DNA of 64,000 nucleotides from Lytechinus pictus (GCF_037042905.1 NC_087245.1:3846001-3910000); one strand, 5' to 3'; positions 8 through 32,371 are shown, numbered from the stretch's first letter. Notes: generated by a model from the sequence alone, not told the origin. Translations and numbers: made by a program.

Positions 8-284
8 AAAGTAATCAGATGTAAACATCCCAAACCAATATGGGCCACCTTTTAGCAAACCTACCCGAGACTACCTCCAGAGGTAGTCTTGGGCAGGCCC
101 CGGCCCACTGATTCGTAAAAGGAAACATGTACCTGGAACCCGTCTCGATCTGTTTGCCAGCTGTCGCAAATTACATGTACGACATTCATGTAGCGCACAA
201 ATTTCCAGATATACACTAGGAGAGGGGAAAAGTGTAGCAAGCGAGAAGGAGAAAAAGGGGAAAAAGATTATATTAAAGTTTATA

Positions 285-1457: not shown

Positions 1458-2009
1458 GATTGTAACTTCAAATAAACTTGGGATACAGGTCTGTATGCAC
1501 AATTAGAGGTACATGAAACATTGTACAGTACATGTGAGGTCAAGGTCATTTAAAGTCAGACATTTCAGTTTACCTGCAAGACTTCCAGTGTGAAATCAAA
1601 CTTGGTTAGGAGTGTAATTGGGGGAAACCTCATGCACAGTAGTGATACATGTAGGTGGGCAAGTGACAATCATGTACCTTGTAATTTTTTATTATTCCTC
1701 CATTTTAAGATGTATGTAAACACACTTGCATTATGGTGTAGCCAATATCCTGAGCATGGAATTTGTCAACAAATGTGTTGAAAGGACATCATAATACAGT
1801 ATTCTGTATTATACAACACAACATAGATTCTTGACAGCTGATTGGGTGAATGCATGTCACATGACATTCAGAGGAATCAGCTGTAGAATGCCAACACATG
1901 AAAGGCGTGCAATTGACTCCTCTTGCACGCTCGAGCAAGAAAGCTGGCACGCCATGGCAGTGCAACGTAGATTCCAAACGCAATGTGTGGGCCATGGCCT
2001 GCGCCTACA

Positions 2010-3667: not shown

Positions 3668-5339
3668 CCTACATAATAATTGCATGCGCGTACCCGCATC
3701 ACTGTGTTACATACACCACGCGCAGGTAAAATGATATTAAGCAAAATCAAAGGCTAAAATTAGACCCGAGTAGGTCTTACTATACCTGTAGTCCCGTTCC
3801 TCCATCATAGGCCTAAAGTTTGATCTTTTTGTGGTTATTTGGTCAAGTTAGAGTATGCCTACAAATCATGTGTGGTATAAAACAAATATTTGATGTTTTG
3901 TCATTCGTGCAACCGTTCAAATATTGAATTTGGTGCAAGTTGAAGCAGTCCATTCTACTCCGCTTTGTGTCTTTAAGTAGACTCTTTCAACTTGCACGCT
4001 CATGTAATATTCAGAAAGATCGCGCTCATAAAAATTGAATATTTGTATGAATACAGTATACACAGTGAATTACATGTACCTGTACATGTACATGTGTATA
4101 CACTTATTCAAATTGACCCCTCCCCCATACATTCAAATTAGGTCAATGATCTTTGTAATGAAGATGGCGGTTAGTATAGCATGTATTAAAAATGTCTAAC
4201 AGCGCCCTCTTGGATCCATGGATCGATCACCTTTATTTCTCTTCACCAGTACATGTACATGTACATTTAATAATTGTGGACTGCACATATGACCTTTAAA
4301 AAGTTTGTATATTATAAGTACATGTACATGGAGCTACTCTGAAAATTAAATTTGCATTGTATTGTAGTGAATCAGTGTTGACTCAGGGAAGTTTTCTATA
4401 ATCCCTCCATGGTTCACATTACTGCAAGCATAGCAGATGTATGCTCCCGGGTTCCTGGGGTGCAGATCAGTGCCTTCTGGCTTTGTGTGCTTCCCTCATA
4501 AAACCATAGCACCAATAGCAATGCACAATTCATTGTGAGCTGTACATTCATGCATCGCCAAATTACACACATCAATCGCAGCAAAAGGGTGCATTGCATT
4601 CAAAGGGTTTGAATGTGTAATTGTGCGGTTGCAACCACATCGCACATTAGTAATTCAGCTCCCCACTACATTTATTCCATTGTGAAGTACTACAATGTAG
4701 GAACATATTCTCTATGTTCTGTATTATGCACATGTACAGTACATGTAGAATCTACATGTACATTACATCATGCGGCAATATCATCTCAACTGGTTATTCG
4801 ACACAGCAGAGCTCACCTTATTTTTTCATTCCTCATCTTCATACAATGGTAATATGGTTCCATCATCCTTCCCCTGTACATTTACATGAATCTTCTATCA
4901 GATGATAAAATTTAGCGAACTTGTAATTCTAATATATTTCTTAAGGGACCCATGTGTTATGCTTATTTTGACCCTAAAATCAGTTAGGCCTAATCATCTT
5001 TTTGTTTTATAGAAAATTACTATTAGAAATTGTCCTATTGAGGTACATGTAGTTGCTTCAAAATGGGGATAAACCAAATATAAAGAATTATAAGAGCTGA
5101 AAAGTAATCACCAGACTGGTTTATGGTCTTCCTTGTGTAGAGGGTGGGGGGGGGGGGGGGGACCAAAATGCAAAATTCACATTTAAGCACCCCAGAACAA
5201 GTTACATGTAAGTCTTACTTCAGAAAGAGTCAGTAATCCATTCAGCTAATTAATAAAATATTTTATAATTTAAAGCTAGAAAAATGATTTTCCAAAGTTA
5301 CATGTGTATTTTGGGACACAAAATGTTTTGAAGTGGACA

Positions 5340-6872
5340 CTTTTTATAATGCCCGTCCTATGGGACGTATTATGGTATCACGATCGGTGTCCGTCTGTTA
5401 GTCCGTCCGTCCATTTTCTTTGTAAACGCGATAACTTTAGTTTGACTCAACCTAGGCTCATATAATTTGGTGTGTATGATACTAGCATGTATCACAGGAG
5501 CCTAACTATTTTGAGGTCAAAGGTCACAGCGACCTGTTTTCATCTTACCCTTCTGTGGTCCTTGTCAATGGATAACTTCAGTTTAACTTAATCTACATGT
5601 ACAGTACATGTAGGCTCATATAATTTGTTGTGTATGATGCATGTACATGTACATGTAGTACAATGTAGCATGGATCCCAGGAAGCCTATTGATTTTGAGG
5701 TACAAAGGTCAAGGTCACAGTGACATGTTTTCATCTTACTCTTCTGAAGTCCTTGTAAACGTGATGACTTAAGTTTAAATTAACCTAGGCTCAACTAGCA
5801 TGGATCCCAGGTATCCTGAAGATTTTCAGTTCAAAAGGTCAAAGGTCAAGGTCACAGTGACATGCTTTCATCTTACCCTTCTGAAGTCATTGTAAATGTG
5901 ATAACTTCAAATCAACTTAAAGGTCAAGTACACCTCAGAAAAACGTAGATTTAAATCAATGTAGAAAAATCAGACAAGAATAATGCTGAAATTTTCATTG
6001 AAATCGGATGTAAAATAAGCAAGTTATGACATTTTAAAGTTTCGCTTATTTTTCACAAAATAGTTATATTCACAATTTAGTCACATGCACTTAATAAAAG
6101 AATGGATTATGTCCCTCACTCACTATTTCTTTTGTTGTTTATTGTTTGAATTATACAATATTTAATTTTTTACAGATCTCACAATAAGGACCAACTTGAT
6201 TTAACCATTAATGTTAAACAATGGCATTTCCACATGTTCAGGGAGGAATAGAACTTTGTTTGACAAGACAATGATGATAAAATTAGAATATTTTGTATTT
6301 CATATAACAAAATACAAAATAAATAGTGAGTGAGTGATGTCATCAGTTGCCTCACTTGCATACCGATCAGGATGTGCATATAACTGTTTTGTGAAATTAA
6401 GTGAAACTTAAAATTGTGACGATTCTCTTATTATACATCTGATTTTGATGAAATTTTCAGTGTTATGCTTGTTGGATTTTTCTCTTTTTATTCAAATCAA
6501 CTTTTTGTTGGAGTGGACCTGTCCTTTAACTTAGGCTCATATAATTTGGTGTGTATGATACTAGCATGGATTCCAGGAAGCCTGTTGAGTTTGAGATCAA
6601 AAGGTCAAGGTCACAGTGACATATTTTCCTCTTACCCTTCTGAAGTCCTTGGAAACGTGATAACTTTAGTTTAACTTAACCTACATATGTATGCTCATAT
6701 AATTTGGTTTTTATGATACCAGCATGGATCCCAGGAATTCTATTGATTTTGAGGTCAGAAGGTCGAAGGTCAAGTCGCCATCTTCATTTTTCTTGTTTGA
6801 CCAATATCTCAATTTTCCGCGTTACAGGCGGGCTTATTGTGCGCTCGCCCCACCCAGCGACACTTAAATGTT
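5340..6872 (+). mobile_element. Helentron-type non-autonomous element (HINE/DINE-1-like), family A
   Basis: T-run, subterminal repeat ATAATGCCCGTCC with a nearby inverted copy, (CCGT)n-like microsatellite, ~140-150 bp tandem units, and 3' GGCGGGCTTATT followed by a GC-rich hairpin-like end. Confidence 0.7.
5921..6525. mobile_element. Kolobok-like MITE with TTAA TSD
   Basis: ttaa|AGGTCAAGTACACC...GTGGACCTGTCCT|ttaa with long imperfect TIRs. Removing it restores the host unit aacttaacttaggctcat. Confidence 0.85.
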
Positions 6873-7903
6873 CATGTATGTATCAAAAGCACAAGATATA
6901 AATTACATGCATGTAGATTTTTGCTATTTCTTTCGGAATATTTAAAACTACATGTAGGCTATTAAAAAAAAACCCACCTTAAATCTCTCACTTTGAAAGG
7001 GTAATATATGGATTCTACATGTATACTCAAAAGTCAGTGTTTCCTACAGTACGTAATTGATTTTGGGGACACAAAAGTTTTAACAATCAGATCCTGAATG
7101 ATTTCTTATTTTTATCTTCAAAATCAGTTTGTCACCAATCGCTTTATATGAGAATGTATAAACTATTTTACCCCAATTCAAGGCTGTAGTCTACTGTAGT
7201 ATAATGAATTAAAAATGTCACATATTTTTGCCAGAAAGTGATAATTTCAAAATATTTTCTCATCAAATTTCAAGTATTTCTTGGACTGTGAAAAATTTTA
7301 TTTTATTTCTTTCTTTGCAAGTTAACTTGGAAAACAATTTAACTTAAACCTAGAGTGGAAATCGGGATTGTACTCTCTTAAATATGGCTTGATGAAGTTA
7401 CTAAAGGTGGTAGTTTGCTAGTGAGTTTCTTATTTATGGAAACACCCATACTTAATAAGAAAAATGAAGACCCCCATCCCCCTGCAATATGCACACTGTA
7501 TAATGTACATGATGTATGCTGTAAGCTACACATCCACAATTAAAAACAAAAAAGTGCATAATTTACATGTGTATGTGGGGTCTGTGCACTCTTCTCCAGA
7601 CAGTAAAATGTGTGTAATGCTTACCGTAATACATTTGAAGTAGGGTCCATGGAGGCTGAGCACAGATGTAAACATATACCCTGTTCTCATTACAATCCTA
7701 AAAAATAGATTACTGGAAACCAATTCAGGAAACCAGTTTGGAAGATAGCTTTGCTAGCATTCACATTTGATCACTCAAAACTGTTTTTTTTATCATGTAA
7801 AGCAGTATTGTTGCTACGGGAACACTCTCAGTCAGGGTGACAGTTTCGCGTGAAATTTGAAAGCACTCTGGCGTAGACATTCTACACAGTGTAGAGTAGC
7901 TCT

Positions 7904-8443
7904 CCCAGAACAAGTTACATGTAAGTCTTATTTCAGAAAGAGTCAGTAATCCATTCAGCTAATTAATAAAATATTTTATAATTTAAAGCTAGAAAAATGA
8001 TTTTCCAAAGTTACATGTGTATTGTTGGGACACAAAATGTTTTGAAGTGGACACTTTTTATAATGCCCGTCCTATGGGACGTATTATGGTATCACGATCG
8101 GTGTCCGTCTGTTAGTCCGTCCGTCCATTTTCTTTGTAAACGCGATAACTTTAGTTTGACTCAACCTAGGCTCATATAATTTGGTGTGTATGATACTAGC
8201 ATGTATCACAGGAGCCTAACTATTTTGAGGTCAAAGGTCACAGCGACCTGTTTTCATCTTACCCTTCTGTGGTCCTTGTCAATGGATAACTTCAGTTTAA
8301 CTTAATCTACATGTACAGTACATGTAGGCTCATATAATTTGTTGTGTATGATGCATGTACATGTACATGTAGTACAATGTAGCATGGATCCCAGGAAGCC
8401 TATTGATTTTGAGGTACAAAGGTCAAGGTCACAGTGACATGTT
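7904..8443 (+). repeat. Near-identical copy of 5191-5729
   Basis: About 540 bp with only a couple of differences seen by eye. It includes non-repeat flank plus the 5' part of HINE family A. Confidence 0.9.
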
Positions 8444-9326
8444 GGGGGTATTTGTTGAATTGCCGTCATAAATTAAAAAGTTTATGGATCTAGTTCATGA
8501 AACTTGGACATAAGAGCAATTATTATCCCTGAACATTTTGTGTGAGTTTAAGGTCACATGAGCAAGGTCAAAGGTCATTGAGGGTCAACAAACTATTTTT
8601 GAAAGTTATCGACCTGCATGTAGTGACACTTGGACATACTGTAAGGGTCTTCAGGTATTTCAGAGCATCTGTCATTCTGTATTAAACTGAAAGTTTATGG
8701 AACTAGTTCATGAAACATAGACACAAGGGTAATCTTTTATCACTGTTTTGCACAAGTCTTATACCCCTTTCATAAACCCAATTATGCGGCTAATAGCAGC
8801 ATAATTTGGTCGTAAAATCGAGGACCAGAGTTATCCGCATTATTTTGATGCTGCAATTATCCGCATAATAGCGGCATCGGAACCAGATTTTGACTTTATG
8901 AACGCAATCCAAAGTAATGCGGATAATTGCCATGGTGCGGTCACAAGGTCACCCTTTTCCAACACAACCGCATCGGAGGGGGTGTTTGCCGTTGCCATGA
9001 CGATTATCCGCCTTTTTTCAGGAAGGGCGCTCGTAAAAATAGTGCGGATTATTTTCGGAGTTTGTGAACGCAATTTTTATTGAATTATCCGCATTACTCT
9101 TACTTCTTAGGCGGCTAATTGGAGGATGGGTTTATGAAAGGGGTATTAGGTCACATGCTTAAGGTCAAAGGTCATTTTGGGTCAATGAACATAGTATTTT
9201 ATTATCATATGAATGTTTTCTTTTGTGAATATTTATTCAATAGTTGTTTACTTGTTTTCAAAGTGAGCACTGCTGCTATATTGAATTATGTAATTCAGGC
9301 GAGTCTGCCACAGGCGACCCACTTGA
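8444..9326 (+). mobile_element. 5'-truncated HINE family C copy
   Basis: Same units and 3' end (caggcgagtctgcca...ccacttg) as 31395-32096. Confidence 0.7.
8762..9145. mobile_element. PIF/Harbinger-like MITE with TTA TSD
   Basis: tta|TACCCCTTTCATAAACCC...GGGTTTATGAAAGGGGTA|tta. The empty site matches the paralogous HINE sequence at ~31910. Confidence 0.85.
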
Positions 9327-11904
9327 TATTTTCTAGGGGCATATTTTTTTACATACAATATAGTGGCTATTTTGAAGGCCACTATTTTTTGAAGTGCTAT
9401 TTTGTGCTCTACTTACTATTGTATAAAAATTACATTTGACCTGCAAGACAATTTTTCACACTGAGATGTGCATAGACCTACAGTGTATACAACTGTAAGT
9501 GTACAGTATGTAGTTAATGAGAGGAAGGTGAAAAAGGAGAACAAGTTTCTTTTTGTCTCGCCCACCAGAAGTGAAGGCGAGACTTACATGTACTTGTACT
9601 TTTTATTTTAGGGAGCCACTTTGAAAAAAAAAATGAGAGCCATTTTTCATTTTACCAATTACATTGTTTATTTAATTGCTATTTATTTTTTCTTCATTGT
9701 TATTAATTTATTGTTGTTCATTTACATGTAGATCTAATGTTTATTGTTTGTATCTCATATTAGATTACCTGGACGTTCTAACTTATACAATTTTGTCCAT
9801 CAAATTTAATAGGCTGAAGTTTATGTAATTTGAACAGAATTTGTTTTCAGAGGAATCCTTTTCATAATTACTTTTTGATAAAAACTCACTTGAAAATTAT
9901 TTATGAAATATTGAATGCATCACAGCCTGATAGCTAACGTCAACATGTCAACTATTTCTCAAGCTATGCTATGCCTACGCCAGCGCAGCCACTGAACACA
10001 GCACAGCTCTCATTCAATCGTCACCGCAACACACAGCTCAAAGTCGATCATCACCGCAACACAGCGGGTATGAAACTACATTAGTGCCAATACATGTAAT
10101 ACACTCAGGCACTGACTGTTACCAAAAATCCCCACTGAAAATCCTAATTTCGGTCTTCTGCGCCATATTTCCAGAGCACCAAGTGGCTTTATAGTTCAGA
10201 TTAAAGAAGTGAAGTCGCCTAAAATAAAAAAAAACTGATTTTCTTCAGAGTTTACGATCTTATTTTCTTGCAAATTTAGGATGGTATCTTCAAAATTAAT
10301 CCAATAAAAAAGGATTTTTTTTACTATCTGATTTAGGGCGAGACCTGGTGCCGGTGCTTTGAAAAATATCTGGGATATCGAGAGTTTGAAACTTGATACG
10401 CATTTTTTCTGAAGCACCGTGCCCGTGATTCTAAAAAAATCCACTCATTTACACGTTGGAACGCGACGATGTATGAAAGTAAACACTGCGGCTGCGCTGG
10501 CCTGGCTGTCTGACTGCTAATATTCAGTCATCAACGGGAGACTTGATGGGCGCGGACGGGAGCGATTTTCATGTTGGGAGTCGCTCGGTACTTGGCAGTT
10601 TTAGGCAGTTGCGAGAGCGATTCCAAAGCACACGAGGGCGGAATCGCTCCCATCTATTTTCAACCCTGTTGTACATGTAGCCTACCATGTCCATGTAGGC
10701 TGTTGTCTATACATGTAGATTCAAATTTAAGCTAAACCCACTGCACAGCCAACTTGTATAAAGATGTAAATAGTGAAAAATCATACAATCCTGTGTACAT
10801 GTACATTGTATGTACATGTACTATTATTATGAAAATGTTGTAATTTTTTTTTAACTCATGCTAGTAAGAGAAGTTATATGCTGTCACAAGCAATGGGATG
10901 GCTAATGTATGGTTCCATGAGCCTAATTACAACAGGAAGGCTAAAGATATTCGTTCGACCTAACCCATTCGAATTTTTTTCAATTTAATATTGCTGTTTG
11001 ACAAAAGTGTATGAATATAATTGAAAATCTAACACTGATTCTAGAAATGGTAACTACTGAACTTCGTTTGCCCAAATTGGGAAGATATATCAATGACTTT
11101 GGAACTATTTTTTGACTGGCGGAAGAATTAGAGCTATTTTACTGTTTCAGTTGATAAATTTGATCCCATCATATTTATCTTCATAAATGGCGATTTATTT
11201 TTAAAATGAGCTGGCTACGATACCCTTCTATGTTCAGATATGGAATGTCAGATATACATGTATATCCTATCCGTACATGTAGTAAACATTCGACCCTCTA
11301 ATTTCACATTTATTTTTTATGAATTTTTCAAAAGTGCCATTTTAACGCACAAGTCTATGGGGAATGTTTTATGCGCGTGACACCATTTGGGTATCTCTAG
11401 AAACTGAACAACCCCCTCTTTGTCAGGTTCTTGCCCAACTAGATCTGTGTGGGATGTGCCCTTTTGCTTTTTGGTTGATGAACACTTAAGAGTGCAAGAG
11501 AGTGGAGGTAAAGACCAAACAGGATCAGTGTGCAAATTATCGCAGGAAATTGGTGTCTGACAAGAAGAGAACTCTCCAGACTCTGTCTCATGAGAAATTA
11601 AAGATACATGTATGCGTACATAATGAGCCTTACAGTATTCCATATTATCAGGGGCTAATCCAGTTTCGCCAATAGTGGGGGCCAGAAAATGTTTTCATCC
11701 TTATTTTTCCTGATTGGTCGCTTAAATCTGATGTGTATTGTTATTATTTTTTTAGGGGGCTAGTCCTACGTGTATAAAGACTAGTATTCTTGAAAATGAT
11801 ATAGGCATTGATGTTGAGGCCTTTAGTAATGTGAGCGTGAAGCATGAGCTATTTTTGTTTTCTTCCTCCTATCTTTCCTCTTCTGTTATCTCCTCTCCCT
11901 ACTT

Positions 11905-14755
11905 TTTTTTTAATGCCCCCGCAGACGAAATCCGGAGGGGGCATTAAGCGTTGCCCCTATCCGTCCGTCCTTCCAATCCGTCCTTCTGTCCGTCTGTCCC
12001 CCCACTTGGTTTCCGCGCAATAACTCGCAAAATAATGGATTTAAAATTTTTTGGTGTATAGGTAGATGACACCAAAATACAGGCTAGGTTCAAATTCGGA
12101 GTCCGCAGGTCAAAGGTCATTAAATATGCGAGTCGGTTTCCGCATGATACAATTAGCATGAATGACAAAAGCCACCACTTCCGCCAGTACACTGCAGTGC
12201 TCACACGTGTGTGGAACGTCCCGGCAGGCTAATTAGACAAATTAGCCTCTTTGTCTAGAACGGTAACTTACGCCAGATATTGCTGAGTTGGAAGCCGCTG
12301 TCTTGAGGAACAGTGTATGTTCCTCAATCTCCAACGCTTCTCTGACTCTCCGCTGATGCCAGTAGGGGACACAGGTGACTAGTCTACTTTCATCCCAAAG
12401 GATCCGGTGATCATGCTTATGAGCAAGATCGATGATTGCAGACTTGTCCCTCTCGTCTCTCCTACCATTGGCCTTGTGTTCCTTAATCCGAGTGTTAAAG
12501 GAACGACCCGTCTCGCCGATGTAAACTTTACCGCATTCACAAGGGAGTCAGGGAGGTCCTTGGAGTTGCGCTTGTCTTTATGGGTAGTGAGGGCAGATTG
12601 AAGCTTATTTGAGGAACTATGACGAACCTCAATGTCGGCTTCTCTCAAAATCCTCTGAATCTTGTAACAGGCTACTCCCAGATATGGAAGAACGACTCTC
12701 GCCTTGGGCTGTTCTGCATGAGGGTTCCACGAGGGGGGAAGCTCTGTGCAGATCTTATGTGAGGGGTAGTTGTTGCATTTCAAAACACGTTTGATATTCT
12801 CAAGCTCACCTCTCGGGTGGATCTGGTCACTAACCTCATGGGCTCGTTCAACTAACGTCTTGTTGATGGATCTCAGCACTGATGGGTGGTGGAATGAACA
12901 ATAGTTCAAGTACCGATCAGTGTGAGTAGGTTTGCGATAAACCTGATAGGATAGGGATCCCTGTGCCGTCCTCGTAATCTTTGTATCAAGAAAGGGGATA
13001 GACCCCTCATTCTCTATTTCCATGGTGAACTTGATATGCTCGTGTTGAGAGTTGAGGTGCTGTATTAAGAAATTGCTAGTTTCCTCAGCTCCATGTTGCC
13101 AAACCACAAAAGTGTTGTCCACATATCTAAGCCACACTTTGGGTTTATGGGTTGCTGACTGGAGAGCTGTCTCCTCGAAATGTTCCATGAACATGTTGGC
13201 TACCACTGGGGACAGGGGAGACCCCATGGCAGCCCCCTCCGTTTGCCTGTAGAATGTATCTCTCCATCTGAAAGAGGTGGAATTGAGGCACATCTCAAGC
13301 AGGTCATGGATCTCTAAGGGAGACAACTGTGTCCTGTCAGGGAGAGTTCTGTCAAATTTCAATCTGTCAAGGATGATGGCGCAAGCATCCTTAACTGGTA
13401 CACTCGTGAACAGTAACTCAACATCAAAGCTGATGAGGTTATTGCTAGAGACGGTCATTTGACAGATCTGCTCAACGAAATGTTTAGAGTTTCTCACGTG
13501 ATGTACGCCCTGACCAATAAGAGGCTGTAAGATGTTGGTCAACTGCTGAGCCAATACGTACGTGGGAGATCCTCTAGTAGACACAATAGGTCTGAGTGGA
13601 GTATCTGGTTAATGAAAGTTCGGTTACCAAAGATTATGGGACAGACCAGACGAGCTCCGGAGTTGTCGTTAAAGGGGTCTAGATAAGACATCCTTCCTCT
13701 GGAGAGAGAGGAGCTTATCGTTAACCCTACATGTATGCTCAATGGCTGGTGTGGGGTCTCTAGGAAGTTTCCTATAAGTCCCCAAATCCAGAAGTAGTAG
13801 CATTATGAAATATTCAACAGATTAAAAAAAATTTGGGTGTGTGGGTAGATGACACCAAAATACAGGCTAAGTTCGAACTCGGAGTCCGCAGGTCAAAGGT
13901 CACAGCTCATTAAATATGTGTGTTGGTTAACTTGGTTTCCGCGTGATAAGTAATGAAATATTCAACATATTTCAAAAAAATTGGGTGTGTAGGTAGATGA
14001 CACCAAAATACAGGCTAAGTTCGAACTCGGAGTCCGCAGGTCAAAGGTCACAGCTCATTAAATATGTGTGTTGGTTTCCGCGTGATAACTAATGAAATAT
14101 TCAACATATTTTAAAAAAATTGGGTGTGTAGGTAGATGATACCAAACTACATGCTAAGTTCGCATGACAACCCATTGGTGAATGTATTCCCAACCTATTT
14201 CTCAGATCACTCACTTGTTAATATCACCTTTGTTTCATGCTAATGCAAGATGAATGACTTCACATATTTAGCTGATACTTGGAAAAAGGAGTAAAATGAA
14301 ATATATGAGTGACATTAATCAATCCCAGTTCAAGACACTGCTTTGGACTTGGATATCTAAAATCTGAGCGTCATCGAGATATGCTCCCCCTACCAGAAGA
14401 TCCCAGTCCTGCTCGAATGTCCAGCTGCGGAACTCGAAGACATAAACAATCCGCGATACTACACATTGTGTCTGTGTTGAATTCAAAATGATTCTGTATT
14501 GAAAAAAATTGATGAGACAGCAAGACCACATTTCCATATGACACAATGAAGTGAGGAAATATCCACATCAAATGACCTGACTGTCATATTATGGAAAGGG
14601 TGAGTCCTTAGGTCAAAGGTCTAGATTTGTTCATTTTATACATGTATCTGCATATTGGTTTCTGCACGATATTAAGTTCAATCATATTGAATGAATTTCT
14701 TTAATCGCGTAAAGCGGGGGCATCTGTGTCCTTTGGACACGTCAAATTTCTGGTT
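11905..14755 (+). mobile_element. HINE/DINE-1-like element, family B (hosts the Penelope copy)
   Basis: 5' TAATGCCCCCGC...GGGGGCATTA, (CCGT)n-like tract, ~140-148 bp tandem units on both sides of the Penelope insertion, then 3' GCGGGGGCAT and hairpin GTGTCC-TTT-GGACAC (14726-14740). Confidence 0.8.
12150..13794 (-). mobile_element. Decayed Penelope-like retroelement (RT + GIY-YIG endonuclease)
   Basis: ORF 12379-13584 has SFDV..LFTSVP, GAAMGSPLSPVVANMFM, RYVDN (catalytic YVDD mutated), PFLD and YRKPTHTDRYLN. After a frameshift it reads PCECGKVYIGETGRSFNTRIKEHK...QDSGFQLSNIWRKLPF* (stop at 12255-12257). Upstream remnants PDTPLRPIV and LLDLGTYRKLPRDPT are present. Confidence 0.92.
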
Positions 14756-16657
14756 TCTTTCTCTTTCCCCTATATTTTTTTTTCTCCGCCTTTGCGGGAA
14801 GGACGGGGGGGAGGGGAGCATGGCTACTTCGGCCCCTTGGATCTGTCAATGATATAAAAAATTTAAAAAAATTGTATCATTTCTCAGCAAGCTGCAAAGT
14901 GGTGTCGTGTGCAGGTTTGGATCTTCTCAATATAAAATGTCCCATGATGATTAAACAGGAATTGTGCAGGAACTTTAAATTCACATATATGCAAATTAGG
15001 CTTTAGTTCATGTTTATTTTGAAAAATGTTACAACTGTACTTTAAACACTGATAATAAATAGGCATTGAGGGTTAACTGGTGGGGTAAAAAATAAAGACA
15101 AAAAATAAAAAAAATGAAAATAAAAATATTCACCCAAAGTTGCTGAAATTTCACATTTTGCATATTTCAAATCAATACATCTATGAAATGGCCATCTGTT
15201 TTCCATATTTCCTTGAAATTATTTTGATATTAGTTGGAAACTACAAAGATTATTATCTATATAGTGTGTTTTAGCACTTCATTTTGAAGCAATGACCCTT
15301 ATTTTTTCTATTATTTTCATTATTTTTTTGCTTGTCACATTTTTCATAAAAATAGCATCTCCTTTACCCCCCCCCCCTACATTGTAGATCCACAGCAGAC
15401 AGTTGGCACCCTGTAAAAGTCTGTCACAGTTTCCACATGTGGTAAACATATACAGTGACATTTATTATTCTGTGGGATTTGCAATTCCTTGAAAGAACTT
15501 AATTTATTTTTTTAAGTACAGATGTACATGTAATTTGTATTGTAAATTTATTTATGAAAGTTCAAAGTAAAGAAGGAATGTAGACAGGGATCACAGGACT
15601 GTAAATACATTAAAAGACTTGTCAAAAACAAAATAATAAAATTGATAATATAACAATAATATTAGTTGACCAAAAAAAGTTTAATGTCCACATCTTTTTC
15701 TGTTAAATTTTTTTTGTATTCCGCATCAAACAATGTGTGAATCACTTAAATTCACAGTATATTTTGTATTAAGACAATACTATGAAGCAATTGATCTGTA
15801 CAACTTTCAACAATACTTGACCTTTAATCTGTCACCGGAGGTCAGAAGATGTGGTGAATTCCTGCTCGTCCTCAGTTTTTGTGTCAACTATAGAAAAGTC
15901 TGGTCGGAAATCTAATAACAGGAAAAGCGGTGACTCAGATTTCCTGTAACTTTGAATGTTTGGGGGAATGATTTTGCCAGTGTTATTCCTATTGTGGTGT
16001 GATAGGGATTGTACATTGCATGTTTTTGATTTGCACTTGTATGCACTTCAGTAGAAACACTGTGTACTTCTTTGATATATTGAATACTGCACCCAAACAT
16101 TTTAACAGAGGAAGCTCTTCTTAAGTTTGGAAGAGGGTGTTATGTTTCCACAGCATTTCGAAGGATGTGGATTGTGGACTACTACAAGCAGCTTCATGTA
16201 GGCCTACATGTACATTTATGCTTGTAGAGTACATTGAGTTTGTCTGGTGCTTACCGTACGTGTTGTGTGGAGGTGACATTCTTCTATAGAGCAGGACATT
16301 GAATTCAGCTGTTGATATGATTGCAAAACTTTTCTTTGACATATTCCCGATAAAATGAATTGCATTGCATCATAGACAATCTGTGTTTTTTTTTCTCTGC
16401 AAATGTGCTTTAATATTATATTCTTCAATACCACTTTATACGAGGATCTACATTGAATTGGAGACTTGATTTGAAGAGAAAGTAGTAACTTTGAGCAAGA
16501 AATATGTTCACTACGCCAGCTATACGATCTCAATCAAAACGTAGAACCACCATGACGACGACCATGATGTCAGTTGAAGACCGTCTTAAGTACCACATAG
16601 AAAAGACTTACAATGAATCTCTTCTCTTTCCTCCTCCTACTTATCCACCTGATCTAG

Positions 16658-16819
16658 ACCAATGCCGCCAAGTTCCGCAGAGAGGACCATGTAACATGCA
16701 GGAGAAGCGTTTCTTCTATAATCTCACAAGTTCTAGCTGTCAGGAATTCATCTATGGAGGCTGTGATGGCAATGACAACCGTTTTATGGATTCAGAATCC
16801 TGCATGGATGCATGTAAAG
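16658..16819 (+). CDS. BPTI/Kunitz domain exon (phase 1-1), putative juxtamembrane exon of the ALK4/5/7 receptor
   Basis: Encodes (D)QCRQVPQRGPCNMQEKRFFYNLTSSSCQEFIYGGCDGNDNRFMDSESCMDACK, with six Cys at exact BPTI spacing plus FxYGGC and GNxNxF motifs. Preceded by a pyrimidine tract and ctAG (16621-16657), followed by G|GTAACT. Length 162 nt, in frame with the TM exon. A weaker in-phase acceptor exists at 16600/16601. Confidence 0.85.
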
Positions 16820-18775
16820 GTAACTTTTATTCTTATCAAGTTTAACTGTTTGATCTCCCTTGAGTTCCTTTTTAATGAAGGCATACAATGTACATGGGAA
16901 AGTTAAGTTGCATTCATTAAATTTCTTGTTAATTTTACGTGTCTACACTTGGCAAATTGTGACTACCACATACATGTATATATATTTTTTTATTATGATC
17001 CTACTCCTACCATATTTCTTGATTATGTCTGTTATTTTTCAGCGTTCATAACTAAAATTCAATTGATTGCATTTTTAGTTTGGTAGCAGAGGATCCATGA
17101 TTTGTGGTTTAGCCAGGTATTTAATTTGATAGCTCTAAGGAGTCAGAGTCAAATGCCAAAAGTCATAGGTCCCAGTCATAGGTGTATATTGAAGAAAGTT
17201 AAAATTCTTCACAAATTGCATCATGTCATTATCTTTTTTTTTCTTTGGATATAATAAAGAGCTATTAAATTGGCAATGAATATTTTAAAATCTGTTTTCA
17301 ATGGCCAACTTCTAAGCATATTTTTTTCAATTCATTGTTACATGAAGAGTAGAAAATAATTTTTAAAGGCCTAGTCTACTGAAAACATGAAAACAAAGTT
17401 GATGTGAATAATTCAGGTAAAATCAGATAATGCTATTATTGATGATAATTTTTTAATATAATTTTTACATGACTGAATGGTTCAATCAGATTTTCACCCA
17501 TAAGACCATAAGACTATTATAACGTACTTTACATGTCGTCCATGAGTTTAACAAAGTTTCTACAGTTCAGGTATACATGTATGTGTACATGTAATTCCAT
17601 CAATGACAAATGTACATGTAGGTTCAAGTTTTGCCTATGAGCTTCTCCATACAGGTATAAACACAGGAAAACAATGTAAGGCTTAACCACAAATCTATTG
17701 TCTGTTTCATGGGGATATATATGTTTCTACATGTACATGTGCAATGTAACTTGAAACTGTGACAATTGCAACATTTCCACTGTCTATGGAAATAAATACA
17801 GTAGTTTGTTCTTTCTTTCCTTAATACAGACGACAAAATGTAGGCCTACGTGTATTGCATGTGTACATGTAGGCCTTGTACTTTGCCTGTCTCTCTCACA
17901 TCCTTCCTATATATCCCATCTGATGCGCGATAGGGGGGGGGTGTACATGTAGTTTGTTAGGACAGTCGTTTGTTTAATAATAATAGTGTCTACATGTTTC
18001 TTTATTAAAAGGGGAAGTTCATGCTTGTGTGAAGCTGTAGAAGTTTAAAAATGTTGAGTATTAGGTAACATCAAAATGGATTATAGAGTAGGGGTCCTAC
18101 ATTGTACATGTAGTTCTGCCTGTGACTTGATTGAAATAAGATAAGCCCATATTAAAAATGGTGCATTTATACTAAATTTCAGATTTGCTTTGATACTGCT
18201 TTGGAATGGCCAGCCTGCATTGCATTTTAATACACATTGGGCAATAAAACACCACATCAATGCAGCATCAAAGTAATTACAAGTAGTGGTATTTGTAGAC
18301 TTATCCCATCATGAAGGATTGAGACAATACACCCACTTTGTCTTGATCTGTGTGACCTTTATTATGACAAGGTCATAGTGATGGAGGAGCTTACTTATCT
18401 TGTCTAGACATGGTTCCTTTGGGCTTCATTTAATCTACACTTTTCTATCCTACTTAGATACATACATGTACATGTGGCTTTCAAGACTTTTTTCAAACCA
18501 CCAATGTTCAAGAGTTTTGGTGTTTTTTTTCTTTAAAAATTACTATCTGTCTTAACACAAACATGCAATCCTGGAAACGGTGTGTTCTAAAATGGGTTTC
18601 TGAAGACCAGCATAATTTACATGTAAACCTTGATGGAACTCAATCATGATTTTGTTTCAGCTTCCACAATCCCAACTCTCACGCTTACAAAAATTACAGA
18701 ATTCTGCAGCCCGTATTCAGTTCCAGTTCTGTCCTCACTGCATTGGTTACCCATCGAGTACCGTATTGTATTTAA

Positions 18776-19373
18776 AGGTCAAGTCCACCCCAGAAAAAAG
18801 TTTATTTGAATAAATAGATAAAAATCAAATACGAATAACGCTGAAAAATTCATCAAAATCGGATGTAAAATAAGATGACATTTTAAAGTTTCGCTTATTT
18901 TTCACAAAACAGTTATATGCACAGTTCAGTGATATGCAAATGAGAGAGTCGATGATGTCACTCACTCACGATTTCTTTTGTTTTTTATTGTTTGAATTAT
19001 ACAATATTTCAACTTTTACGAATTTGACAAATGGGACCCTCTTGTTTGAAACACAAAATGTTAAAACAATGGAATCCCACATGTTTAGGGAGGAATGATT
19101 TTTTTTTCACATGGCAATGAGGAGAAAATTAAAGTATTTCATATTTCACATAATAAAATACAAAAGAAATAGAGAGTGAGTAATGTCATGGGTCCCCTCA
19201 TTTGCATATCAACCAGGATGTGCATATAACTGTTTTGTGAAATTAAGCAAAACTTAAAAATGTCATTACTTTCTTATTTTAGATCGGATTTTGATGACAC
19301 CTTTTTAGCGTTATGCTTAGTCTGATTTTTCTCTTTCTATTCAAAGCAGCTTTTGTTGGGGTGGACTTATCCT
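18776..19373. mobile_element. Kolobok-like MITE with TTAA TSD, same family as 5921-6525
   Basis: ttaa|AGGTCAAGTCCACCCC...GGGGTGGACTTATCCT|ttaa, inserted in the L2 reading frame at RIVFK. Confidence 0.85.
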
Positions 19374-19859
19374 TTAAGTTATTATTGTTAGTTTTTCACT
19401 GTATCCATGGATCTGCCCCAGAATGTTGATGCCATACAATCCTCCTTGACGTTTAAGATCTGATTCAAAATTGCTTGCAGTTCCTAAATCAAAGAAATAT
19501 TTCATATTTCACATTATAAAATACAAAAGAAATAGAGAGTGAGTGATGTAATGGGTCCTTTTCATTTGCATATCAACCAGGATGTGCATATAACTGTTTT
19601 GTGAAATTAAGCAAAACTTAAAAATGTCAATACTTTCTTATTTTAGATCGGATTTTGATGACATTTTCAGCGTTATGCTTGTCTGATTTTTCTCTTTCTA
19701 TTCAAAGCAGCTTTTGTTGGGGTGGACTTGTCCTTTAAGTTATTATTGTTAGTTTTTCACTGTATCCATGGATCTGCCCCAGAATGTTGATGCCATACAA
19801 TCCTCCTCGACGTTTAAGATCTGATTCAAAATTGCTTGCAGTTCCTAAATCCAAGAAAT
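19135..19859 (+). repeat. Tandem duplication, ~363 bp x2
   Basis: 19135-19497 is repeated at 19498-19859 and spans the MITE/L2 junction. Confidence 0.85.
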
Positions 19860-21745
19860 CATGGGGGGATCGGTCATTTGCACATGCTGGACCATCCTTG
19901 TGGAATCAGTTGCCATTTTCCATTCGTAGTATTTCAAATTTCAATTTCAAAATTGCTCTTAAAACCCATTTGTTTAAAATTGCCTTCCAGTAGTTTCCTT
20001 TCATTGTCATGACTGTGCTTCTTTTATCCTTGTCCCTTCCTGCTCCATGCATTTTTTCTCTTATTTCCTTTTTGCAGCGCCTTGAGCACATAATCAATGT
20101 GGATTTGGCGCTTTAGAAATACTCTATATTATTATTCTTCTTTGAGATACATTCAGGGCTCAAAACTAACCCCTTTTTCTACTGGTCCAATCTGTTCATG
20201 TCAGACCAGTAGATTCCTGGTTTTCCATTTTTTACTGTCCCAAACTTAAAATTTATTGGTCCCCCAAAATAAAGAAAAACATAAAAAAGTTTATTTTGCT
20301 GTCTTTTGTTGCTTTTTTGCCCCCTAAAAAACCCATACAAACAAACAGTACACACACACACCCAATGCATGAGAGCCATTTTCAAAGATGCAAGTGCCAT
20401 ATTTATAATTTGCAAAAGAAGAGAAAATATCAGTTTTATCAGTTTGATATATTTTTTACTGTTATGTCGGACCAGTAAATCTGGCTATTTCTGAAAAGTT
20501 ACTGGACTGACACCAATTTTTAATGGTCTGCGACTGGTGCCAGTGTAGTGCACTGCATAGGCCTATGGTTGGAGCATGCATTGCATTCAAAGTTTCCTTG
20601 GGCAACCTGTACAGTGTTTTGGCTTCTAAGGGAGAATCAGATATGATGAAAAAAAAAATTGCCTGAATGCTGATTTGCGATTCATGTTTGTGGTAACAGC
20701 TTCATGAAAAAAATGAAATAAAATGAATGTACATTGAGTTCATTGAATGTACTATCTGTGCTAATTTAAACAATTGCTAGTATTATAACTGCATCAACAT
20801 ATATTTACATGGTAAAAAGCCATGTCCAACGATTGCCTTTGTGTGTGAGCCTATTCTAATATGTACTTTTAATAGGTACACCACACTGAATGGATTCACT
20901 GACCCAGATTGGTAGTTGATGTGCTCAGCAAGCACAATATCTTGTTGCTATGGGGACATTCTCAGCATAAGGCGGTGGGGTCAAAGGTTTCATGCACAAT
21001 TTGAAGCCAAGGTAGACTTTTGTCTTGCCTTTGAATTCATACTGATTTCTTACCCAACAGATGGACCTTCCTGGATCAGTGACATTCACAATTTGTTCTG
21101 AACTGGTTAAATAGGCAAAATGATTGTAAAAACCATGTGGAAAGTGTGGTTTAGTGAACTGCTTTAGAATATCACATTCTGAAATGTCAATTCCAAGATT
21201 GATTGGGGTAGGGGGCTTGAAAGTCCTTATTGTGTAATTAGAAAGTATCCATCAACAGGACTGCATGAATGCAGGTTACATATCATTTCACTTCTAAGGA
21301 CAACATGTACTGAGTGGTATATGGAGGAAGTCCTTGATCACCTTCATATGTACGTATAACAAGAATAGTACATATGTATTATATCATTTTAAAAATAATT
21401 TCTTATACACATAAAGAATTTTTGAATCAATAGCTCGAATGTATTTTGTTCGTCTGGAGAAACATATTATTCACAGTTTTTTTTTCTGTCAGGCTTTAAG
21501 GTTACTCCTTATTTTTCACATGTACGTGGAGACAGTGTTTAAGTAATTGTTCCAGAAACTTGTCCCCAAACTCTTGAATTTGTGATTTCGTTTTATTTTT
21601 TTATTATTTTGTAATGACTCTAATTAGCTCTTTTTTAAGTACTAGTACTAAATTATTTTTCAGCGTGTCCATAATCCTTTTGAATAAGCTCTTGATCCAG
21701 TAACGTAAAGTCATCATTTTTTTGTTTTGCCTCTTTATTTTCCAG

Positions 21746-21985
21746 ATTACAGGGTAGGTGGACCTGAGTCAGGTATAAGCATTGCTGGTGTAGCAGCACT
21801 GGTGGCAGGACCTATATGTCTGATCTGCATATCAGTGACAATCTACCTACTCCTTAGACAGAGCCCAGGATGTAGAGATGATGGTCGTGGTCAGATGCTT
21901 GATAATGGATCAAAGGATAATCTGATCAAATCTCCACAGCTCAGTGATCTGGTAGTGGATCCAACCACATCTGGATCAGGATCAG
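21746..21985 (+). CDS. alk4/5/7: ALK4/5/7 type I receptor exon: transmembrane helix and start of GS box
   Basis: ttttccAG acceptor. Encodes (D)YRVGGPESGISIAGVAALVAGPICLICISVTIYLLLRQ...DPTTSGSGS(G), compare TGFBR1 LAAVIAGPVC and TTSGSGSG. Donor G|GTAAAA. Confidence 0.95.
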
Positions 21986-26725: not shown

Positions 26726-26956
26726 GTTTACCACTTTTAGTCCAGCGTACCATCGCTCGTCAGATTGTCATTCAGGACTGCATTGGAAAAGGGCGGTATG
26801 GTGAAGTGTACAAGGGTAAATGGCGAGGCGAGTCTGTTGCTGTGAAGATATTTAGCTCTCGTGAGGAGCGTTCTTGGTTCCGTGAAGCTGAGATCTACCA
26901 GACTGTGATGCTTCGACATGAGAACATCCTTGGTTTTATTGCTGCAGATAATAAAG
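26726..26956 (+). CDS. alk4/5/7: ALK4/5/7 exon: end of GS box and kinase N-lobe
   Basis: Encodes (G)[76 protein letters not shown]. aatAG acceptor, G|GTAATC donor, 231 nt. Confidence 0.98.
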
Positions 26957-28380: not shown

Positions 28381-28548
28381 ACAATGGAACATGGACGCAG
28401 CTTATCCTTGTCAGTGACTACCATGAGAATGGATCCCTCTTTGACTACCTGAATGCCCATTCAATTGATGTACCTGGAATGTTGAGAATGGCACTCTCTA
28501 TTTCTACTGGACTAGCTCATCTACACATGGAGATCATGGGCATGCAAG
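28381..28548 (+). CDS. alk4/5/7: ALK4/5/7 kinase exon carrying the L45 loop (not in ORF track)
   Basis: Encodes (D)NGTWTQLILVSDYHENGSLFDYLNAHSIDVPGMLRMALSISTGLAHLHMEIMGMQ(G). The spliced ADNKDNGTW L45 loop is the Smad2/3-type signature. ttattAG acceptor, G|GTATGG donor, 168 nt. Confidence 0.97.
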
Positions 28549-29250: not shown

Positions 29251-29397
29251 GTAAACCAGCCATTGCCCACCGAGACATCAAGTCCAAGAACATCCTGGTT
29301 AAACGCAATGGTCAGTGTGCTATTGCTGATTTGGGACTTGCGGTCAGACATGACTCTGTCACAGATACAGTAGACATCTTCCCCAACAATCGCATAG
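29251..29397 (+). CDS. alk4/5/7: ALK4/5/7 kinase exon: catalytic loop and DLG motif
   Basis: Encodes (G)[48 protein letters not shown](G). ctccAG acceptor, G|GTAAAT donor, 147 nt. Confidence 0.97.
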
Positions 29398-30949: not shown

Positions 30950-31084
30950 GTACAAAGCGTTACATGGCTCCAGAGGTGTTAGATGATACCATTAACATGA
31001 ATCACTTTGATTCCTTCAAGCGGGCTGATGTATATTCCTTTGGATTAGTACTATGGGAGACAGGAAGAAGATGCTCAGTATTTG
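30950..31084 (+). CDS. alk4/5/7: ALK4/5/7 kinase exon: GTKRYMAPE region
   Basis: Encodes (G)[44 protein letters not shown](G). tttcAG acceptor, G|GTAAGT donor, 135 nt. Confidence 0.97.
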
Positions 31085-32240: not shown

Positions 32241-32371
32241 GTATCCATGAAGAGTTTTGTCTACCGTACCACCCATGGGTACCAATGGATCCTCCTATTG
32301 AAGAAATGAGGAGGATAGTGTGTGTTGAGAAGAGGAGACCACCGATTCCTAACAGATGGAACAGTCATAAG
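32241..32371 (+). CDS. alk4/5/7: ALK4/5/7 kinase exon (not in ORF track)
   Basis: Encodes (G)[43 protein letters not shown]. tatAG acceptor, AAG|GTAAAC donor (phase 0), 131 nt. Confidence 0.96.

Follow-up and report, generated by a model that had tools for sequence, protein, structure and literature searches.

APP and APLP2 are type I membrane proteins whose ectodomain carries one Kunitz domain (KPI), the product of one symmetrical, skippable exon; the KPI of APP, which has Arg at P1, inhibits potently. HAI-1 and HAI-2 (SPINT1/SPINT2), which resemble the protein described here in carrying Kunitz domains on a single-pass membrane protein near the cell surface, are described as dedicated inhibitors of membrane serine proteases (PMC12940448). 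WFIKKN1/2 (GASP-1/2) are reported to be extracellular proteins that control myostatin and GDF11 and acquired their Kunitz domains via exon shuffling (PMC3427181). Among receptors, vertebrate TGFBR1/ALK5, ACVR1B/ALK4 and ACVR1C/ALK7 and the TGFBR1-like receptors of hemichordates and amphioxus share with echinoderm Alk4/5/7 the signal peptide, the three-finger domain with CCxxxxCN, the transmembrane (TM) segment and the GS region, as well as the L45 sequence ADNKDNGTWTQL and a kinase that is 66-76% identical over the aligned part. The stretch from CCxxxxCN to the membrane is a short unstructured linker in these receptors, whereas the echinoderm proteins insert a folded, disulfide-rich domain of 51 residues there. 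Alk4/5/7 is expected to transmit Nodal and related TGF-beta signals (Nodal, Univin, Activin or TGF-beta), and the extra Kunitz domain lies just outside the membrane. Sea urchin Alk4/5/7 is treated as a signalling type I receptor in two papers (PMC2772021, PMC13200730).

We analyzed a 64,000-nucleotide stretch of the Lytechinus pictus genome (NC_087245.1:3846001-3910000; “the window”, whose positions are used throughout). Its initial annotation had proposed that an intact 162-nt Kunitz exon, in phase 1 at both ends and containing an NLT glycosylation sequon, was built by exon shuffling into the ectodomain of a type I receptor, about 10 residues from the membrane, where it could engage proteases among other partners; the architecture was thought to be undescribed.

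Results

The Kunitz exon and its host gene

The gene in the window is L. pictus Alk4/5/7 (TGFBR1-like), and the Kunitz exon is its regular third coding exon (Table 1). Direct reading of the DNA gives a pyrimidine-rich tract at 16620-16655, an AG at 16656-16657, the open exon and then GTAACT, upstream of the TM exon on the same strand. The exon opens with two bases that complete a codon and closes with one base of the next, which places both ends in phase 1. It matches PF00014 with an E-value of 6.5e-19 (68.3 bits, where the curated cut-off is 21 bits; profile positions 2-53 of 53), and comparison with solved structures aligns query residues 2-52 without gaps to BPTI 5-55. The cysteines follow the pattern C-8-C-15-C-7-C-12-C-3-C, which is unique within the window when both strands are scanned, and the exon is single-copy in the genome, the next Kunitz exon being at most 43% identical. 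The NLT sequon is present, and about 11 residues (KDYRVGGPESG) separate the last cysteine from the hydrophobic segment. The initial observation of the exon is confirmed, with the correction that the upstream three-finger exon is not in the window.

The receptor begins outside the window, with a putative signal-peptide exon 29 kb upstream of the Kunitz exon (G000:C1:3833665-3833725; MALKHFIFIILVVISLHFVS-G/GTCAGT) and a three-finger exon 22 kb upstream (G000:C1:3840098-3840412, or window -5902..-5588; ending CCA CCA G/GTAAAT), whose boundaries are in phase 1. These exons supply a Cys-rich three-finger ectodomain ending in CCxxxxCN and preceded by a putative signal peptide. Upstream of the window the gene is complete, and in total its exons come to 1851 nt (617 codons). 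A “CCYIELCN” string at 9271-9294 was considered as a receptor exon and rejected, since the N-termini of the orthologues match nothing in positions 1-16600.

On the downstream side, the TM exon is preceded by a pyrimidine tract and AG, starts in phase 1 and ends ...TSGSGSG/GT. The GS motif stands directly before the kinase (TSGSGSG at 21964-21985, joined to 26726 onward) and is matched by Pfam TGF_beta_GS. The catalytic motifs of the Ser/Thr kinase are intact, including GTKRYMAPE, and the Pkinase profile matches the L. variegatus protein P0133 with an E-value of 4.4e-35. Spliced contigs contain the joints 21985/26726 and 26956/28381, and a long 3' UTR runs beyond 34500, with 5325 more letters past that point in the contig of run X15. 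The L45 loop of the L. pictus RefSeq protein (P0006) is ADNKDNGTWTQL, of the Smad2/3-activating type, while the genome's other two type I-like loci carry SDMTSRHSCTQL and ADIRGSGAYTQL (Alk1/2-type and Alk3/6-type). This loop tells Smad2/3-activating ALK4/5/7 from other type I receptors, and by its sequence the gene is the sole Smad2/3-type (TGFBR1/ACVR1B/ACVR1C-like) type I receptor found in the genome.

Table 1. Features of the Alk4/5/7 locus within the window
Feature	Position	Strand	Evidence
Intron between three-finger and Kunitz exons, 3' part (whole intron 22.2 kb, phase 1)	1..16657	+	
Reverse-transcriptase ORF of a retroelement fragment, 409 aa, in the 22.2-kb intron	12379..13608	-	Pfam RVT_1, E 5.2e-8
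Intron stretch read as coding start by RefSeq XP_054750219.2 (P0006)	16504..16657	+	
Pyrimidine tract and AG acceptor of the Kunitz exon	16620..16657	+	read in sequence; contig pieces start at 16656
Kunitz/BPTI exon, 162 nt	16658..16819	+	PF00014, Cys spacing, BPTI match
Intron between Kunitz and TM exons, GT..AG, 4926 nt	16820..21745	+	joint 16819/21746, 4/4 runs
Outer stalk (DYRVGGPESG), TM, inner juxtamembrane, GS start (TSGSGSG)	21746..21985	+	
GS end and kinase N-lobe (GKGRYGEV; L45 start ADNKD)	26726..26956	+	Pfam TGF_beta_GS, Pkinase; joints
Kinase exon	28381..28548	+	tblastn; joints
Kinase exon with HRDIKSKN and DLGLA	29251..29397	+	motifs, Pfam, joints
Kinase exon with GTKRYMAPE	30950..31084	+	motif, joints
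Kinase exon	32241..32371	+	protein match, joints
Last coding exon, through stop codon	33349..33612	+	protein match, joints

Transcript evidence

Transcripts were sought in 4 runs, which come from 4 studies and cover two organisms; the “RNA?” label of these runs is a guess, and their RNA nature is concluded from the intron-less contigs. One spliced contig per run (4/4) joins 16819 to 21746, and the same contigs connect the Kunitz exon to the TM exon and 6 further exons, all across GT..AG introns. The protein reads ...CMDACK-D-YRVGGPESGISIAGVAALVAGPIC after the joint, as had been predicted from the DNA, and the same sequence is found in proteins P0006 and P0133. The Kunitz exon is spliced into the receptor transcript.

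For the junction between the upstream ectodomain exon and 16658, the expectation was borne out in part: contigs extend 45-430 letters 5' of 16658 with non-intron sequence in 3 of the 4 runs, but the L. pictus joint was not seen letter by letter. Read mapping allowed introns of up to 20 kb, and this intron measures 22.2 kb. In all 4 runs the contig pieces start at 16656, a two-letter overlap that equals the AG ending the upstream exon. What links exon 2 to the Kunitz exon in L. pictus is the length of these contigs, the overlapping AG, and the full-length transcripts and models of the orthologues. An intronless copy of the gene was found nowhere in the genome; all matches of at least 73% identity lie at the window locus, exon by exon. 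Window and organism-B contigs disagree at 2 of the exon's 162 letters, and at the protein level L. variegatus departs from the window at 2 binding-loop residues; two differences each are too few for the dN/dS comparison that had been suggested.

Distribution and origin in echinoderms

We compared 12 echinoderm orthologues (11 full-length and one N-truncated model) from echinoids, asteroids, an ophiuroid and crinoids, with no named holothurian among them. The combination of signal peptide, three-finger domain, Kunitz domain, TM, GS region and kinase was found in 12/12, which confirms the proposed union of receptor and Kunitz domains, even though Pfam Activin_recp matched at an E-value of 0.01 or better in only 4/12. 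PF00014 matches all 12 aligned orthologues, and the six cysteines are kept in every one, with an extra residue in the second Cys interval in 3. Records with the domain include S. purpuratus XP_798456.4 (RefSeq) and L. variegatus X1, the L. variegatus record being XP_041481444.1 (GenBank AIQ77880.1). Among the best 120 relatives, PF00014 was found in 11 (8 named echinoderms and 3 transcript contigs) and was absent from the other 109; the domain was likewise absent from three hemichordate receptors and every other non-echinoderm match listed.

In the tree, the Kunitz-bearing orthologues form one clade (support 100/98) that adjoins the three Kunitz-less hemichordate receptors (support 83/76), the echinoderm genes grouping with hemichordate TGFBR1-like genes. 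This topology implies a single gain of the Kunitz module. Mean identity over 66 pairs was 0.46 for the Kunitz part, 0.42 for the three-finger domain, 0.29 for the linker and 0.20 for the outer stalk; by this measure conservation of the Kunitz part matches that of the ligand-binding domain, and the Kunitz part is under constraint. An N-x-S/T equivalent of the NLT sequon is found in 10 of the 12 orthologues, the exceptions being the 2 crinoids.

The exon-shuffling origin put forward in the initial annotation holds. The Kunitz exon is a class 1-1 module, that is, a symmetrical phase-1 exon in a phase-1 host intron (the ectodomain/TM intron is in phase 1 here), flanked by the phase-1 donor of the three-finger exon and the phase-1 start of the TM exon. 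Aligned with the receptors of hemichordates, amphioxus and primates, the echinoderm sequences carry it as a clean insertion, 53-54 residues long. L. variegatus has both an isoform X1 model with the domain (P0133, 616 aa) and an isoform X2 model without it (P0007, 562 aa), in which the flanking exons meet in frame as ETPP/DYRV. Judging from this one automatic gene model, the exon can probably also be skipped, leaving a short single-domain ectodomain.

The architecture is no local novelty, being phylum-wide and ancient. The belief that it was undescribed stood insofar as a Kunitz domain in echinoderm Alk4/5/7 is discussed in no paper that could be searched, two key papers lying outside the reach of the search, but the domain is already present in public protein records. 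In functional work with a P. lividus Alk4/5/7 cDNA, a GS-region Gln is placed at position 265 (PMC2772021). The same Gln falls at 269-271 in Kunitz-bearing echinoids and at 194-203 in Kunitz-less hemichordates; because 265 is near the former and not the latter, the P. lividus functional clone most likely includes the module.

The P1 residue and comparison with known Kunitz proteins

Canonical Kunitz inhibitors have Lys or Arg at P1 for trypsin-like proteases and a large hydrophobic residue for chymotrypsin-like ones. The P1-equivalent residue, placed in register by the ungapped match to BPTI 5-55, whose P1 is K15, is Asn in the window. The 12 orthologues read N, N, S, G, P, D, T, D, N, T, E and E, and 0/12 have Lys, Arg or a large hydrophobic residue there. 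The invariant columns (C127, G134, C136, Y145, C152, G159, C160, N165, F167, C173 and C177) map to the generic core of the fold, and no receptor-specific conserved loop was found among them.

Kunitz domains of all three known systems were among the structural matches: APP KPI chains (1aap, 1ca0), WFIKKN1 (2ddi, E 1.6e-11) and, among the best, HAI-1 (5h7v) and HAI-2 (4u32). The receptor exon resembles that of APP in being single, symmetrical and probably skippable (compare L. variegatus X1 and X2), but APP has Arg rather than Asn at P1, no kinase, and its KPI far from the membrane. HAI-1 and HAI-2 have no signalling domain, and the receptor module has no suitable P1. WFIKKN1/2 are secreted antagonists, not receptors, and the Kunitz domain of the receptor is no closer to theirs than to others.

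Discussion

Taken as a whole, we consider it reasonably probable that the exon is the third of Alk4/5/7, gained once in echinoderms, and that it encodes a non-inhibitory stalk or interaction module. After echinoderms and hemichordates had diverged, a symmetrical phase 1-1 exon would have entered the phase-1 intron that separates the ectodomain exon from the TM exon, in a single event on the echinoderm stem, and purifying selection would have preserved it since. From its N-terminus, the mature ectodomain would consist of the three-finger ligand-binding domain, a linker of ~21 residues, the Kunitz fold with its conserved N-glycan site and an 11-residue stalk, followed by the TM helix, the GS region and the kinase. 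Rather than a canonical serine-protease inhibitor, the module would be a folded, glycosylated, membrane-proximal stalk or interaction module that would fix the placement of the ligand-binding domain, both its height and its geometry, and may present a surface to lineage-specific partners.

Several other readings of the locus have to be weighed. The exon is separated from its upstream neighbour by about 22 kb and from its downstream neighbour by about 5 kb, in an intron with retroelement debris, as might be a separate nested gene or a decaying, exon-like intronic relic. This reading, to which we give next to no credence, is refuted by the splicing into the receptor in 4/4 runs, in contigs that also carry kinase exons, and by the intact PF00014 match in 12/12 orthologues; the exon is also the sole Kunitz pattern in the window. 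It is also very improbable that the RefSeq model is correct and that transcription starts near 16504, giving a Kunitz-only N-terminus with neither signal peptide nor three-finger domain. The 22.2-kb intron holds the start of both model versions (P0006, P0128) and of an older record (P0005), P0006 mapping at 100% identity from 16504; the reading frame is open from 16495, and a low-depth colinear contig (15979-16685, depth 7) occurs in run X15 only. Against this, the RefSeq N-terminus has no hydrophobic signal sequence and the disulfide-rich domain would therefore not be exported, while the high-depth contigs leave the genome match at the acceptor and continue into other sequence in 3/4 runs. 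Intact putative signal-peptide and three-finger exons with matching phases lie upstream on the same strand, and the full ectodomain is found in all orthologues. The L. pictus RefSeq model wrongly starts inside the intron. We regard it as unlikely, though less so, that the third exon is a regulated cassette comparable to the KPI of APP, yielding a long, Kunitz-bearing and a short, vertebrate-like receptor with differing ligand or co-receptor properties. The exon is symmetrical and its skipping therefore keeps the frame, both forms are among the L. variegatus models, and a spliced X15 contig stops exactly at the 5' boundary of the exon, as at a branch of the assembly graph. However, X2 is an automatic model, the X15 branch is equally explained by the low-depth unspliced contig, the main contig contains the exon in 4/4 runs, and no contig with the skipped joint is among the joints listed (a further 351 joints and 2326 loose ends lie beyond these).

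As for function, a tethered, working protease inhibitor could shield the stalk or ligand from pericellular proteolysis, or regulate a protease involved in ligand processing or shedding. The fold and six cysteines are intact throughout, the domain sits in the receptor stalk, and its nearest solved relatives are true inhibitors (SmCI 4bd9, E 5.4e-33; boophilin, TFPI, HAI-1 and bikunin). Some Kunitz inhibitors are non-canonical, and proteases vary in the P1 that they prefer. HAI-1 and HAI-2 are also a precedent for membrane-anchored Kunitz inhibitors (PMC12940448). Yet P1 is never Lys, Arg or large hydrophobic and varies even among echinoids (N, N, S, G), nothing in the canonical binding loop is invariant besides fold-core Gly and Cys, and 10 of 12 orthologues carry the glycan site on the adjacent hairpin. 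A working inhibitor is, in our estimate, decidedly improbable, and the protease engagement suggested by the initial annotation is disfavoured. Because no orthologue has a basic or large hydrophobic P1, a stalk or interaction module without inhibitory activity seems more likely than a protease inhibitor, a preference that rests on negative evidence, namely the unsuitable P1 residues and the lack of a conserved loop. A more far-reaching and rather doubtful possibility is that the module determines Nodal/Univin/Activin/TGF-beta signalling, as a second site for a prodomain, co-receptor or antagonist, its inclusion or skipping tuning the choice of ligand or the range of signalling; EGF-CFC, Lefty, Panda or a type II receptor would be candidate partners. 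If true, echinoderm Alk4/5/7 would stand apart in mechanism as a separate class of receptor, and would be the first known case of a receptor Ser/Thr kinase that signals via a Kunitz fold.

Repeats in the introns

GC content rises to 0.458 in 12001-14000, around the reverse-transcriptase ORF. The intron between the Kunitz and TM exons contains a dispersed repeat of ~243 bp, which forms a 2 x 361-bp tandem at 19135-19859 and has 5186 first-look candidates genome-wide. A (GAT)53 microsatellite at 30751-30909 lies in the intron directly 5' of the exon encoding GTKRYMAPE.

The Kunitz exon is spliced into Alk4/5/7 transcripts

The Kunitz exon has the structure set out for it in the initial annotation: an open stretch of 162 nt comes directly after a pyrimidine-rich tract with AG (16656-16657) and is followed by GTAACT, and both exon ends are in phase 1, with the first two bases finishing a codon and the last base opening the next. 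Its product, (D)QCRQVPQRGPCNMQEKRFFYNLTSSSCQEFIYGGCDGNDNRFMDSESCMDACK, covers the whole of the Pfam profile PF00014 (E 6.5e-19), and a pattern search of the six frames of the window found its C-8-C-15-C-7-C-12-C-3-C cysteine spacing in this exon only. A set of 24 other long open reading frames in the window had no Pfam match, and an Rfam scan of the window gave zero matches.

The exon was found in 18 listed sequencing runs (5 studies), none of them recorded as RNA, so that their kind is guessed to be RNA. Four runs from four studies, two of organism A and two of organism B (the two run sources), were compared with window positions 15000-34500. In line with the splice proposed in the initial annotation, one contig in each of the four joins the Kunitz exon to the transmembrane (TM) exon at 16819/21746 with GT..AG borders, and further joints lie downstream on the same contig (see table). 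No intronless copy of the gene was found in the genome, all strong matches being exons of the Alk4/5/7 locus. Since the contigs lack the introns and the genome offers no intronless source, they derive from processed RNA. On the other side of the exon, the Kunitz piece starts at 16656 in all four runs, the two extra letters agreeing with the terminal AG of the three-finger exon (exon 2), and from there the contigs run on upstream for another 45, 0, 422 and 430 letters that do not match the intron. Because the contigs leave the genome match at this point, with the AG overlap and non-intronic letters beyond it, we conclude that the acceptor at 16658 is used; the exon 2-Kunitz joint itself is not displayed in the L. 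pictus contigs, the intervening intron being 22.2 kb and the mapping span 20 kb. Contigs of organism B differ from the window at 2 of the 162 letters of the exon.

Features of the Alk4/5/7 locus and its surroundings (window positions, unless given on G000:C1, which is NC_087245.1 and contains the window as 3846001-3910000; a slash marks an exon border)
Feature	Position	Strand	Remarks
Signal-peptide exon	G000:C1:3833665-3833725	+	upstream of window; MALKHFIFIILVVISLHFVS-G/GTCAGT, phase 1
Three-finger exon	G000:C1:3840098-3840412	+	upstream of window; ends CCA CCA G/GTAAAT, phase 1
Kunitz exon	16658-16819	+	
TM exon	21746-21985	+	
Downstream joint	21985/26726	+	GT..AG
Downstream joint	26956/28381	+	GT..AG
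Downstream joint	28548/29251	+	GT..AG
Downstream joint	29397/30950	+	GT..AG
Downstream joint	31084/32241	+	GT..AG
Downstream joint	32371/33349	+	GT..AG
CCYIELCN motif	9271-9294		rejected as receptor exon
Reverse transcriptase-like frame	12379-13608	-	409 aa; RVT_1, E 5.2e-8
Tandem repeat	19135-19859		two 361-bp units
Microsatellite	30751-30909		(GAT)53
Deep intronic stretch	31275-32576		includes 162-bp tandem units at 31494-31895
Alk1/2-type kinase region (L001)	G000:C1:10072743-10073375		query residues 222-432; one unbroken 224-aa frame

The RefSeq model lacks the 5' end of the gene

The Kunitz exon is 100% identical to the corresponding part of P0006 (XP_054750219.2, "TGF-beta receptor type-1-like [Lytechinus pictus]"), which itself aligns to the window at 100% identity. 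This model begins at an ATG at 16504, inside the intron, and reads across the Kunitz acceptor, and its product therefore has neither the signal peptide nor the three-finger domain; its earlier version and the older record P0005 likewise start in the intron. The L. pictus RefSeq model is thus wrong at its 5' end and needs correction. A low-depth contig, seen in run X15 only, runs colinearly over 15979-16685; whether unspliced RNA or DNA, either of which it could be, it may be the source of the RefSeq start. A search of the genome that contains the window, with the L. variegatus orthologue as query, found the signal-peptide and three-finger exons absent from the model; relative to the Kunitz exon they lie 29 kb and 22 kb upstream, respectively. 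Together with the transcript joints, the exon lengths total 1851 nt, or 617 codons, and the full L. pictus gene should encode 617 aa. The CCYIELCN motif had been a candidate for the upstream ectodomain exon; we rejected it because orthologue N-termini match nothing in window positions 1-16600, the real exon lying outside the window.

The TM exon codes DYRVGGPESG, a hydrophobic segment, a juxtamembrane stretch and TSGSGSG, and kinase motifs are present further downstream. The L45 region of the receptor is ADNKDNGTWTQL, which we take to be of the Smad2/3-activating type, the top non-echinoderm matches among the best 120 relatives are TGFBR1, ACVR1B and ACVR1C, and the other type I-like loci of the genome carry Alk1/2-type and Alk3/6-type loops. 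We therefore assign the receptor to Alk4/5/7. At one of the other loci, L001, the kinase region forms a single uninterrupted frame, whereas in Alk4/5/7 the kinase is finely divided among exons. At the 3' end, a 7707-nt spliced contig of X15 runs 5325 letters past 34500 (window 33613 to about 39800), which means either that the 3' UTR is about 6 kb long or that there is read-through.

The Kunitz domain was probably gained once, in the echinoderm stem

Among the best 120 relatives of P0006, 11 combine PF00014 with the GS region and kinase: eight named receptors, from L. pictus, Diadema antillarum, Amphiura filiformis, Patiria miniata, Asterias amurensis, Acanthaster planci, Anneissia japonica and Antedon mediterranea, and three transcript contigs. 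PF00014 is missing from the other 109, which come from hemichordates, amphioxus, vertebrates, insects and a brachiopod. Cluster members add two further Kunitz-bearing receptors, S. purpuratus XP_798456.4 (614 aa) and L. variegatus isoform X1 (P0133, 616 aa; identical to GenBank AIQ77880.1), while a protein search with the ectodomain region alone returned just three proteins, all already found. For alignment we used 12 sequences, leaving out P0006 as truncated and nearly identical to P0133. Eleven of these run from signal peptide through three-finger domain, linker, Kunitz domain, short stalk and TM segment to GS region and kinase; the twelfth, the Antedon model P0021, starts within the three-finger domain and has no signal peptide. 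Set beside hemichordate (three), amphioxus (one) and primate (one) receptors, the Kunitz domain shows as 53-54 residues inserted cleanly after the CCxxxxCN knuckle and before the membrane.

The 12 Kunitz receptors fall into one clade (100/98) adjoining the hemichordates (83/76) in a 25-row maximum-likelihood tree, and a single gain therefore suffices. As the 12 span echinoids, asteroids, ophiuroids and crinoids, this gain is placed in the echinoderm stem. The aligned set included no named holothurian, and P0013, an unplaced long branch, may or may not be one. In the L. pictus genome the exon is single-copy, and the next most similar Kunitz exon is only 43% identical, so that the genome contains no recent donor.

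Constraint and P1 residues suggest a non-inhibitory role

Over the 66 pairs of the 12 sequences, mean identity was 0.42 in the three-finger domain, 0.29 in the linker, 0.46 in the Kunitz domain, 0.20 in the outer stalk, 0.44 in the TM segment and 0.80 in the GS region and kinase. Constraint on the Kunitz domain is thus no weaker than on the ligand-binding domain, and it clearly exceeds that on the flanking regions. The six Kunitz cysteines are retained in 12/12, and at the FYN turn 10/12 have an N-x-S/T sequon, which both crinoids lack. With the register fixed by an ungapped match of query 2-52 to BPTI 5-55, the residue at BPTI Lys15 (P1) reads N, N, S, G, P, D, T, D, N, T, E, E across the 12; basic and large hydrophobic residues are missing from this list, and P1 differs even among echinoids. 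The invariant columns of the domain coincide exactly with the generic fold core. Given this unsuitable, variable P1 and invariance confined to the fold core, we favour a non-inhibitory role, in which the module would be a folded, glycosylated stalk positioning the ligand-binding domain, and might bear lineage-specific contacts. A complex prediction of the three-finger domain (P0133 24-110) with the Kunitz domain (122-181), run without controls and with the alignment unused, scored 0.00, a value that counts neither for nor against contact between the two. The binding-loop codons at 16693-16707 read NMQEK in the window and P0006, NMHEK in P0128 and P0005 (an earlier version and an older record of L. 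pictus), and NMHET in L. variegatus; the position two residues past P1, which differs among the L. pictus records, appears to be polymorphic or fast-changing.

Two further ideas bear on what the domain does. The L. variegatus isoform X2 model (P0007) skips it in frame (junction ETPP/DYRV), and the exon may therefore be a cassette like the KPI of APP. The idea that the Kunitz domain replaces a missing EGF-CFC co-receptor is weakened by PMC9907556, in which EGF-CFC orthologues are reported in echinoderms.

Relation to known receptors

The kinase, GS region, TM segment and three-finger domain are ordinary for the ALK4/5/7 class, but the extra Kunitz domain does not fit it, and we know of no TGF-beta type I or type II receptor, nor of any other receptor Ser/Thr kinase, described with one. 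The nearest analogies, all among the solved-structure matches, are Kunitz-bearing membrane proteins (the APP/APLP2 KPI cassette and HAI-1/2) and the Kunitz-bearing TGF-beta-family antagonists WFIKKN1/2. Nodal, Univin and TGF-beta sensu stricto, which are the most thoroughly studied signals in axis patterning of the sea urchin embryo, act through Alk4/5/7, and this receptor is routinely manipulated by morpholinos, inhibitors and activated mutants. The Kunitz-bearing Alk4/5/7 is real, ancient and in a prominent gene. If the extra domain dates to the origin of the phylum, structural models of vertebrate ALK4/5 complexes do not fully transfer; the domain would also provide a handle on how stalk geometry, glycosylation or extra contacts affect ligand selectivity, and exon shuffling would have a textbook example, both clean and datable, in a central receptor of development.

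The sequences, and hence automatic domain calls, are already public. The searchable literature contained no relevant paper linking Kunitz with Alk4/5/7, sea urchin, Nodal or type I receptor, and three core sea urchin papers, PMC2772021, PMC11239237 and PMC4564238, never use the word "Kunitz". An earlier mention could stand in Lapraz et al. 2006, Piacentino et al. 2015 or any supplement; that one exists somewhere in the literature we consider the less likely case, though by no means a negligible one. The methods of PMC2772021 describe a P. lividus Alk4/5/7-Q265D mutant. As the equivalent Gln is numbered 269-271 in the echinoid sequences compared, versus 194-203 in hemichordates, the P. lividus clone of the literature most likely contains the Kunitz module.

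Repeats in the window

The reverse transcriptase-like frame, which lies where the large intron is locally richer in GC, is a retroelement fragment on the strand opposite to the receptor gene. In the tandem repeat at 19135, the first ~243 bp of each unit are a dispersed repeat with 5186 first-look genomic candidates (88-94% identity) and no Rfam match, probably a SINE- or MITE-like element; in each of the four runs, contig depth over 18255-20207 ranges from thousands into the tens of thousands. The second intronic stretch of extreme contig depth (up to about 1.8e5, 4/4 runs), at 31275, is another abundant repeat. The microsatellite, which ends 40 nt upstream of the kinase exon at 30950, would give poly-Asp if read in the frame of that exon, yet is intronic according to the spliced contigs.
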